Positions 6,001-9,000 of a stretch of DNA of 64,000 bases are shown here, piece by piece (positions within the stretch are counted from its first letter, which is position 1; the number at the start of each line of letters is the position of its first letter). The DNA lies in the NCBI RefSeq assembly GCF_054482525.1, contig NZ_CM137006.1, one strand, 5' to 3'. The position numbers were made by a program.

Positions 6001-9000
6001 ATAACCCTGAGACGGGGGAACTGCTCTGGCTGCATGAGACAAAACACGCCTACAACGAACAGGGTCTGGCAAACCGCGTCACGCCGGACTGCCTGCCTGC
6101 TGTGGAGTGGCTGACCTACGGCAGCGGTTACCTGGCGGGGATGAAGCTGGGCGACACGCCGCTGCTGGAGTACGCGCGCGACCGCCTGCACAGAGAAACG
6201 GTGCGCAGCTTTGGCAGCATGGCAGGCAGTAATGCCGCATACGAACTGACCAGCACATACACCCCTGCAGGCCAGTTACAGAGCCAGCACCTGAACAGCC
6301 TGGTGTATGACCGTGACTACGGGTGGAATGACAACGGCGACCTTGTGCGCATCAGCGGCCCGCGACAGACGCGGGAATACGGCTACAGTGCCACGGGCAG
6401 GCTGGCGAGTGTACGCACCCTCGCACCGGACCTGGATATCAGCATCCCGTATGCCACCGACCCGGCGGGAAACCGGCTGCCGGACCCGGAGCTGCACCCG
6501 GACAGTACACTCACGGCGTGGCCGGATAACCGCATCGCCGAAGACGCGCATTACCTGTACCGTTACGATGAATACGGCAGGCTGACGGAGAAGACGGACC
6601 GCATCCCGGCGGGTGTGATACGGACGGACGACGAGCGGACCCACCACTACCACTACGACAGCCAGCACCGTCTGGTGTTCTACACGCGGATACAGCATGG
6701 CGAGCCACTGGTCGAGAGCCGCTACCTCTACGACCCGCTGGGACGGCGAATGGCGAAAAGGGTATGGCGGCGGGAGCGTGACCTGACGGGGTGGATGTCG
6801 CTGTCGCGTAAACCGGAGGAGACATGGTACGGGTGGGACGGCGACAGGCTGACGACGGTGCAGACTAACACCACGCGTATCCAGACGGTGTACCAGCCGG
6901 GAAGCTTCACACCGCTCATCCGCATCGAAACAGACGTGACCGAACTGGAGAAAGCGCAGCGGCGAAGCCTGGCGGAGAAGTTACAGCAGGAAGGGAGTAA
7001 AGATGGTCACGGCGTGGTGTTCCCGCCTGAACTGGTGCGGCTGCTGGACAGGCTGGAGGGGGAAATCCGGGCAGACCGTGTGAGTGACGAAAGCCGGGCG
7101 TGGCTTGCGCAGTGCGGGCTGACGGTGGAGCGGCTGGCGGCACAGATCGAGCCAGTTTATTTGCCTGAGCGAAAAATACATCTTTATCACTGCGACCACC
7201 GGGGACTGCCGCTGGCGCTTATCAGTACTGAAGGTGCAACGGAATGGCGTGGGGAGTATGACGAGTGGGGGAATCAGCTTAATGAGGAGAACCCGCATCA
7301 TCTGTTCCAGCCATACCGCCTGCCGGGGCAGCAGTACGATGATGAATCGGGGCTGTGCTATAATCGTTATCGTTACTACGAGCCGTTACAAGGGAGGTAT
7401 ATTACACAGGACCCGATTGGGTTAAATGGGGGGTGGAATTTATATAAATATCCGCTGAATCCAATAAATTATGCAGATCCTCTTGGCTTAGCCGTAGATA
7501 TAAACCACTTCCCAGTCAACGAAGACATACGAAATTATGCAGAGAAAGTTTGGAATAATCCTAATATCATTACAATTGGAACACATGGTGATCCTCAATC
7601 AGTATATGATGAAAATTATAATAAGATAGATGTCAAGACATTAGCTAATGAGGTTCGAAATCATCCTAAATTTAAACCTGGAATGTCAGTAAGACTGTTA
7701 TCCTGTAATACAGGAAAAGGAAATAACTCTTATGCACAGCAATTGGCAGATGAACTAGGTGTGAGAGTCTATGCTCCTGACCAATATGACTGGTACTATT
7801 CAAATGGTAAGGTAGAGCCTTGGGGAGGATTTTATGATGCAAACAATCAATTGCAAATGGACACGAATCAGCCTGGACATGAGTTTACATTCAAGCGAAG
7901 GAGACCATAGGTATGAGGTATTTTCTCTTTATATTTATAACAATTCCCCTTATCTCTGGAGGTCATATGAGTAATGATAGCGAAAAGATAATATCAACAT
8001 ATTCGCTCAATTTTTTATCACCAGATGATGTGAGGAAGGAAGAACTTAAGGCATCACAAGGTGATAGTGATGCTGCATTTAAATTGTACAAATATTACCT
8101 TTTTTGCGAGCCAAAATCATACAGAAAACAGCACGAATGGTTAATAATATCGGCAAATAATGGAAATGCTATAGCTCAATATAACTTATCAAGAGAACTT
8201 GAGTCAGAAGGAAAAGTAGATGAATCAATACAATGGCTGAAAAAATCAGCGGAACATGGTAATAATTACGCACAATATCAGATGTCAAAATATTTATTAA
8301 AAATAGGTGATATTAGAGGATCGGAATATTATCTAAACTTATCTGCGGATAACGGATGTGTATTTGCAATAAAAGATATTATCAAAAATATGATGGGTAG
8401 TGGAAGGTACGATGACGCCCTCATTTGGGTTGAAAAATTGAAAAAATTGTATCCTGACACAAATACCGAACTTTACATACAAAAAATAACGCAGAAAAAA
8501 AAGCAATCCAAATAATAATTATATATAATTACTCGCACAGAGTTACAGTATTGCAAGAAATATATCTAGCATATAAAGTCGCCGCCAGTAAAGATAAAGT
8601 ACTGTGTAATCCTTCCTCCCATATAGGGGTAAAAACTTAGCATCTAGTGCTCTCGACTTAATTTTTAGTATTTTCTCTGTGAAGTGACACTTCGTAGGAT
8701 TCAGTTCATGTTTACCAGAAAAAAGGTGGTCAATCTGGTGGTCTTGACAATCTCGATTTTTTTTAGCTTTCCAATCAGCCAGTTAATGGCTACGACGATC
8801 CCAGTCAGAGGAGCCAAATTTTAGTTTTGAGACATTTCTATGAGTCTCAAGACAGTTAAAAAATAAAAATTATTTTTACCCGGTTACCTTGTAAAAAAGT
8901 GACCGGGTTTTTTGATTTCTGTGTTTCGTGCGCTTAATCGAGTCTCACGCTTCTGTGAGCAAATTGCCCCCCAACAGACATCACGATTCGCAAGGTCAAA

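Follow-up and report, generated by a model that had tools for sequence, protein, structure and literature searches.

The DNA analysed here (the window) is a stretch of 64,000 nucleotides (nt) of Escherichia coli, taken from contig NZ_CM137006.1 of NCBI RefSeq assembly GCF_054482525.1; the window runs in the reverse of the K-12 orientation. Its subject is the 16-nt sequence CCAGTCAGAGGAGCCA, located on the plus strand at 8801-8816 next to yeeN, together with the DNA to its left, which an initial annotation had described as a genomic island inserted at the 3' end of the tRNA-Asn gene asnW. Rightwards of this fragment the gene order is yeeN, amn, shiA, a glycosyltransferase gene, a long yeeJ, asnT, mtfA and serU. 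The features at and around the junction are the following.

1-8816 (no strand assigned): right-hand 8.8 kb of the proposed 10,649-bp asnW island; the remaining 1,833 bp on the left, with the attL arm, the integrase and some of an AT-rich spacer, are not in the window
8725-8800 (+): island-side (P) arm of the proposed attR, with paired GGTGGTC at 8725-8731 and 8737-8743, putative arm-type integrase binding sites
8801-8820 (+): proposed attR core, formed by the 16-nt copy of the tRNA-Asn 3' end (8801-8816) plus AATT; a 20-nt exact direct repeat with attL at the intact asnW
8817-9265 (+): original chromosomal DNA 3' of asnW (B' side), as far as yeeN; 78 of its first 80 nt equal the K-12 asnW flank, and the K-12 alignment is continuous
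9266-9982 (-): yeeN (YebC/PmpR family regulator), chromosomal neighbour of the insertion site
24060-24135 (-): asnT, an intact tRNA-Asn with a K-12-like 3' flank; site unoccupied in the window; not the partner repeat

The 16-mer has a single other copy in the window at up to two mismatches, and this copy is exact. It lies at 24060-24075 (-) and is the 3' end of asnT, in agreement with the identity to that tRNA claimed in the initial annotation. The identity to the tRNA is exactly 16 nt long, since position 8800 carries C and the tRNA has T there. By chance, 0.01 matches to the 16-mer are expected per window, and none of 100 shuffles reached two or more. ARAGORN called no tRNA at or adjoining 8801-8816, and a tRNA-like fold was sought but not seen in the 76 nt up to 8816, which fold no better than shuffled sequence (z = 0.22); the DNA upstream of the fragment is indeed not a tRNA. 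As the initial annotation stated, asnW lies beside yeeN in K-12, and the K-12 locus itself shows asnW with its 3' end facing yeeN. The fragment has the same position and orientation, and its distance to yeeN (~450 nt) equals the K-12 yeeN-asnW spacing. What the window holds at the position of asnW is the 16-mer without a tRNA body. The asnT gene is in the opposite orientation to the 16-mer and its site is unoccupied, since its 3' flank is K-12-like; the partner repeat falls outside the window. Across the 11 E. coli loci compared, the 16-mer was confined to tRNA-Asn 3' ends or to body-less copies at the right ends of islands.

The sequence beyond the left end of the window was read from two close relatives, PCN033 and strain 1190. 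Window 1-9000 is 100% identical in PCN033, SCU-102 and 19KM1776 and 99.4% identical in strain 1190 and others; at a coverage of at least 80% it was found in 163 of the 5,426 complete E. coli genomes that make up the set for all genome counts given here. PCN033 and the window are identical only as far as 25,231, and the closest match that spans this point, the serU junction, is 99.3%. In both relatives nac is followed by cbl, asnU and yeeO; next come an intact tRNA-Asn (asnW), the gene of a 420-aa tyrosine integrase and the content of the window. The intact asnW ends 1,833 nt before window base 1, about 10.6 kb upstream of the fragment. It had been predicted that an intact tRNA-Asn with a matching direct repeat, and with them the other end of the island, would be met on extending the sequence leftward, and this is what the relatives contain, with the difference that the exact repeat is 20 nt long and not 16. 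This repeat, CCAGTCAGAGGAGCCAAATT, consists of the 16-mer plus AATT and is present at both island ends. The island measures 10,649 bp when its first base is taken as the one following the tRNA CCA and its last as the final base of the second repeat. No third copy of the repeat (tandem islands) was detected inside it at up to three mismatches.

In silico removal of these 10,649 bp restored the K-12 yeeO-asnW-yeeN junction: 1,400 bp across the joined ends align to K-12 end-to-end, in a single segment, at 96.6% identity. When the occupied attR is compared with K-12, the alignment starts at query position 685, which is window 8801. The uninterrupted yeeO-asnW-yeeN site, of the kind that the initial annotation had named for comparison, occurs in 4,981 of the 5,426 genomes.

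The integrase gene adjoining asnW lies outside the window and was read in the two proxy genomes. Its product contains the domains PF13356 (Arm-DNA-bind_3), PF22022 (Phage_int_M) and PF00589 (Phage_integrase), and the catalytic residues R239, K278, H342, R345, H369 and Y379 are all kept. Its amino-acid identity is 71% to the integrase encoded by the colibactin (pks) island of CFT073 and 70% to that of the high-pathogenicity island (HPI) located at asnT in the same strain. The DNA between the tRNA and the start of the integrase gene, which forms the attL arm, is conserved in all five loci compared. At the right end, about 95 bp (8725-8820) are common to the window, the asnU island of an O121 strain, the asnT island of an O145 strain and the CFT073 pks island, and further left the sequences diverge. 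The conserved stretch extends from GGTGGTCA.TCTGGTGGTCTTGACA (window 8725-8749) to the core, and directly after CCAAATT the four right-end sequences part ways. A similar GGTGGTCA.ATCTGGGGTC block is found upstream of the integrase gene. Both blocks would be arm-type binding sites of the integrase. An excisionase or recombination directionality factor (RDF) was sought among all island open reading frames with NCBIfam and PHROGs and none was detected; the single relevant find was a Ner/SfsB-like helix-turn-helix protein.

Considering the repeat pair, the intact integrase adjoining the tRNA and the K-12 junction regained on virtual excision, insertion by an integrase at the tRNA-Asn 3' end, as first suggested, is well supported. 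We conclude, with a probability of roughly 0.93, that 8801-8820 is the attR core, where a 10,649-bp island inserted at the asnW 3' end meets the chromosome on its right side. A circular form of the island would have carried an attP made up of a P arm of ~75 bp, the 20-nt core and a P' arm of ~160 bp running into the integrase gene. The integrase, a P4-type heterobivalent tyrosine recombinase, would have recombined the attP core with its exact counterpart at the 3' end of asnW. The resulting attL would consist of the intact tRNA beside yeeO followed by the integrase, and the resulting attR of the island arm and core followed by the original downstream DNA of asnW and yeeN. The island may still be able to excise. 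Several points weigh against this interpretation. The left end lies outside the window, and attL is known through the proxy genomes only. No RDF or excisionase was found in the island, and present-day excision is therefore uncertain. Nor is there a clean foreign G+C signature: the island has 51.9% G+C against ~47% in the flanks and is a mosaic, with 34% in the putative immunity gene plus arm, 38% in the spacer, 54% in the integrase and 58% in Rhs.

The same lineage uses more than one asn tDNA, being present at asnW in PCN033, at asnU in O121 strain GTVSS-020 and at asnT in O145 strain RM12522, with flanks that match K-12 in each case; the insertions at asnU and asnT are precise. In GTVSS-020 the island is located between asnU and cbl, asnW is empty and the integrase is 96% identical. 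This island contains an intact second integrase-domain gene, Rhs, a tetratricopeptide repeat (TPR) gene, the arm and the repeat, and its right flank is the K-12 asnU 3' flank. An inversion between asn tDNA copies was considered for this arrangement and rejected; the orientation of yeeO relative to yeeN and cbl remains as in K-12, which makes the O121 island an insertion in its own right. In RM12522 asnT is followed by an integrase that belongs to this lineage (96% identity). Among the cargo genes are tssG, tssF, vgrG and a PAAR gene, a body-less 16-mer closes the right end, and the flank agrees with that of K-12 asnT. The RM12522 integrase (locus L009, 10395-11657) has HGLK instead of HGLR, with Lys at the catalytic arginine of HxxR (R345), and may be inactive although its frame is intact. 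A degraded relative of the island was also observed at asnT in EcMAD1 (locus L008), where the integrase has an internal stop, the right repeat is missing and a deletion runs into yeeJ. This copy shows how such islands become fixed.

Using megablast, the right arm (window 8560-8816) was retrieved once each in 91 genomes, in 67 of which it is joined to the yeeN flank. The larger number of genomes covering at least 80% of window 1-9000 (163 versus 91) is probably explained by right ends that vary too much to share an exact word of 28 nt, as in O145. The yeeO-asnW-integrase junction was present in 366 genomes. The 307 of these that fall in the 80-90% identity band were taken as carrying putative pks-type integrases, which would leave the remaining ~59 for the present lineage. 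The non-Rhs backbone (window 1-3700) was detected at a coverage of at least 80% in 268 genomes.

Alternatively, the integrase may have made the junction in some ancestor, with the present lineage receiving the island passively, inside a larger piece of chromosome exchanged by homologous recombination in the conserved flanks, and keeping it as a fixed, immobile relic. We regard this as unlikely. It would fit the failure to detect an excisionase or RDF among the island open reading frames, the frameshifts in several island genes and the occurrence of the island at the same site in ~59-67 genomes at 97-100% identity; the title of a study on the neighbouring HPI, 'Role of Intraspecies Recombination in the Spread of Pathogenicity Islands within the Escherichia coli Species' (PMC2606025), points in the same direction. 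However, the integrase is intact with all of its catalytic residues, the two copies of the 20-nt core do not differ, and conservation extends to both arms. In addition, the lineage is found at three different asn tDNAs, on backbones that otherwise resemble K-12, and therefore site-specific events are required. Passive transfer bears on the route of acquisition alone and leaves the identity of the 16-mer unchanged.

That identity would be different if asnW had decayed or lost part of its sequence in place, leaving the 16-mer behind, and unrelated DNA had arrived beside it later. The missing tRNA body upstream agrees with such a history, yet an intact asnW stands 10.6 kb away next to yeeO, its usual neighbour, taking out the intervening DNA regains the K-12 sequence without loss, and the DNA adjoining the 16-mer on the left shows homology to the pks right end and not to tRNA or yeeO. 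The comparison of repeats and flanks, together with virtual excision to K-12, refutes decay in place, to which we assign a very small probability. A match arisen by chance is smaller still in probability: against the expectation of 0.01 matches per window, four further identical bases extend the match, it is placed exactly where the asnW 3' end should be, and in the other loci the 16-mer is found only at tRNA-Asn or island ends. Position, extension to 20 nt and non-random occurrence refute chance. The precise insertion and the restored site rule out both in-place decay and coincidence.

The part of the island inside the window carries the following genes.

929-1645 (-): frameshifted integrase-domain gene (Phage_int_SAM_2 + Integrase_1 type); frameshifted by annotation in PCN033 and strain 1190, its intact O121 homologue matching PF12834 and PF12835
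2496-2750 (-): Ner/SfsB-like helix-turn-helix regulator, 84 aa; NCBIfam SfsB match at 3.9e-32, below the curated cut-off; PHROG 769, transcriptional repressor
3729-7910 (+): full-length Rhs core protein, 1393 aa by translation; NCBIfam RHS_core equivalog at 2595 bits, above the cut-off
7913-8515 (+): TPR/Sel1-like protein, putative cognate immunity protein; annotated as tetratricopeptide or sel1 repeat, RefSeq start 7967; 2 nt downstream of Rhs

The left-hand DNA had been called island-like on account of Rhs, a Ner-like gene and an integrase remnant. Rhs and the Ner-like gene are present as described. The supposed remnant is a frameshifted gene of a cargo type (PF12834/PF12835), and the true integrase lies outside the window. 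Together with its neighbouring AT-rich stretch and helix-turn-helix (HTH)/HigA genes, the 929-1645 module recurs at the left end of an aspV-linked type VI secretion system (T6SS) island. The gene thus belongs to a cargo backbone that T6SS islands also have, and its product is not the enzyme that made the junction.

The Rhs protein is composed of an N-terminal PAAR motif, YD repeats, the core end DPLGL and a C-terminal tip of ~135 aa. No Pfam family match was found for this tip, which may be an uncharacterised toxin domain. The tip (window 7505-7910) contains ...IGTHGDP... and ...LLSCNTG..., which by eye resemble a His/Cys dyad. The TPR/Sel1-like protein gave weak Pfam matches only; its position directly after rhs makes it a candidate immunity protein, and the two genes would form a T6SS toxin-immunity module. 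Between the window and strain 1190, most of the first-listed mismatches bunch at 5938-6040 inside Rhs, and the rest of the 12.4-kb overlap is nearly identical. Such a cluster fits gene conversion between Rhs copies, which it may reflect.

An AT-rich stretch of 1.36 kb (38% G+C) separates the integrase from the next gene (window 1-954 and positions 5592-6954 of locus L003). It contains no annotated gene and no open reading frame with a family match. Window 101-450 is ~82% identical to DNA beside aspV-island integrase fragments of other strains. The integrase-domain gene, the HigA/HTH genes and a tssG-tssF backbone are common to asn-tDNA islands (as in O145) and the aspV-linked T6SS island (locus L011, E. 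coli 'O157:H7 str. EC10'). This suggests that modules are exchanged between islands that use different integrases.

Some further features of the window were recorded outside the island. A lambdoid prophage begins directly after the tRNA-Ser gene serU (25127-25216, +) and extends from 25217 to at least 45000, with an integrase at 25269-26294 (-). The induced phage vB_EcoS-689R5 covers 86% of this stretch at 97.9% identity. The prophage starts where the window stops matching PCN033, and it represents a second insertion at a tRNA site in the same window. A cluster of four tRNAs (Met-CAT, Lys-TTT, Thr-TGT and Gly-TCC) is located at 38523-38832 (+), within the stretch matching lambdoid phages. The yeeJ homologue (15135-23822, -) encodes 2,895 aa, compared with ~2,340 aa (7,020 bp) in K-12, and contains internal repeats in units of ~600 bp that are 85-90% identical (window 18673-20712).

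For annotation, the analysis supplies exact boundaries for a 10.6-kb island whose right end lies at window 8816/8820, and the body-less tRNA fragment is to be described as an attachment scar and not as a pseudogene. If the island is still mobile, it would provide a route by which an uncharacterised Rhs toxin and its putative immunity gene spread between strains. The T6SS-related cargo consists of a complete PAAR-Rhs toxin with its putative immunity partner at asnW, in the present case, and in O121, and of tssF-tssG-vgrG-PAAR in O145. It is possible, though doubtful at present, that the integrase constitutes a third and apparently unnamed lineage of asn-tDNA-specific P4-type integrases in E. 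coli, distinct from those of HPI and pks (70-71% identity) and moving T6SS-related cargo between asnT, asnU and asnW. Rhs toxins are usually regarded as fixed chromosomal elements; were such a third lineage real, they would also travel as passengers of a site-specific integrative island. The asn-tDNA hotspot of E. coli, known for HPI and the colibactin island, gains a third type of cargo (Rhs/T6SS) and, in that case, a third integrase lineage.

A literature search for this Rhs island at an asn tDNA retrieved no paper describing it. The closest known system is the pks island. The asnW gene is a documented site of this 54-kb island, which has a P4-type integrase and 17-bp repeats and can also use asnU or asnV (PMC8209727; PMC7545054). 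The pks island of CFT073, 536 and UTI89 (PAI-asnW) shares with the present island the site, the orientation (yeeO-asnW-int ... repeat), the att core and a P4-type integrase directly after the tRNA. The attL arms are ~89% identical and the right arms 79%, including the GGTGGTCA.TCTGGTGGTCTTGAC block, and pks too is found at further asn tDNAs (PMC8209727). In contrast, the integrases are 71% identical, the present island measures 10.6 kb instead of 54 kb and carries Rhs cargo, and its exact repeat is 20 nt compared with 17 nt in CFT073. With CFT073 as comparison, no clb biosynthetic genes were found between the repeats of the island in PCN033 and strain 1190.

The yersiniabactin HPI at asnT resembles the present island in its integrase family (70% identity), in a core formed by the tRNA-Asn 3' end and in the conserved attL arm upstream of int. 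The HPI of E. coli no longer has a right repeat and stays fixed at asnT (PMC8209727), whereas the present island retains both repeats. HPI further differs in its ybt cargo; ybt, irp and fyuA genes are absent from the island in PCN033 and strain 1190, again with CFT073 as comparison. Asn-tDNA islands such as GIE492 of Klebsiella pneumoniae, where four clustered asn tDNAs are hotspots for related integrases with varied cargo and excision has been shown experimentally (PMC4891358), use the same core at the same kind of hotspot, albeit in another species and with microcin E492 as cargo. ROD21-like (EARL) islands likewise insert at Asn-tRNA genes, with repeats of 24-37 bp and a conserved module of RDF, type IV pilus and MobA/TraD (PMC6035254). 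They are larger (19-41 kb versus 10.6 kb) and have longer repeats than the 20 nt found here, and no RDF, type IV pilus genes or MobA/TraD were annotated or detected in the present island. With respect to its cargo, the island resembles the Rhs and PAAR-Rhs T6SS effectors of E. coli, with an RHS_core match, a PAAR motif, the DPxGL core end, a variable tip and a small downstream gene; neither vgrG nor a chaperone was found beside Rhs in the window. The K-12 Rhs elements have no integrase association, unlike the present Rhs, which lies inside an integrase-bounded tRNA island.

Taken with the asn-tDNA islands that have P4-type integrases, the present element leaves the tRNA intact, is bounded by repeats containing the last 16 nt of the tDNA, encodes a three-domain integrase, has a corresponding empty site and possesses homologous integrase and arm sequences. 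It belongs to a thoroughly known kind of element and does not challenge current understanding. The new points are modest: an integrase lineage apart from those of HPI and pks, the use of three asn tDNAs, and Rhs/T6SS cargo.

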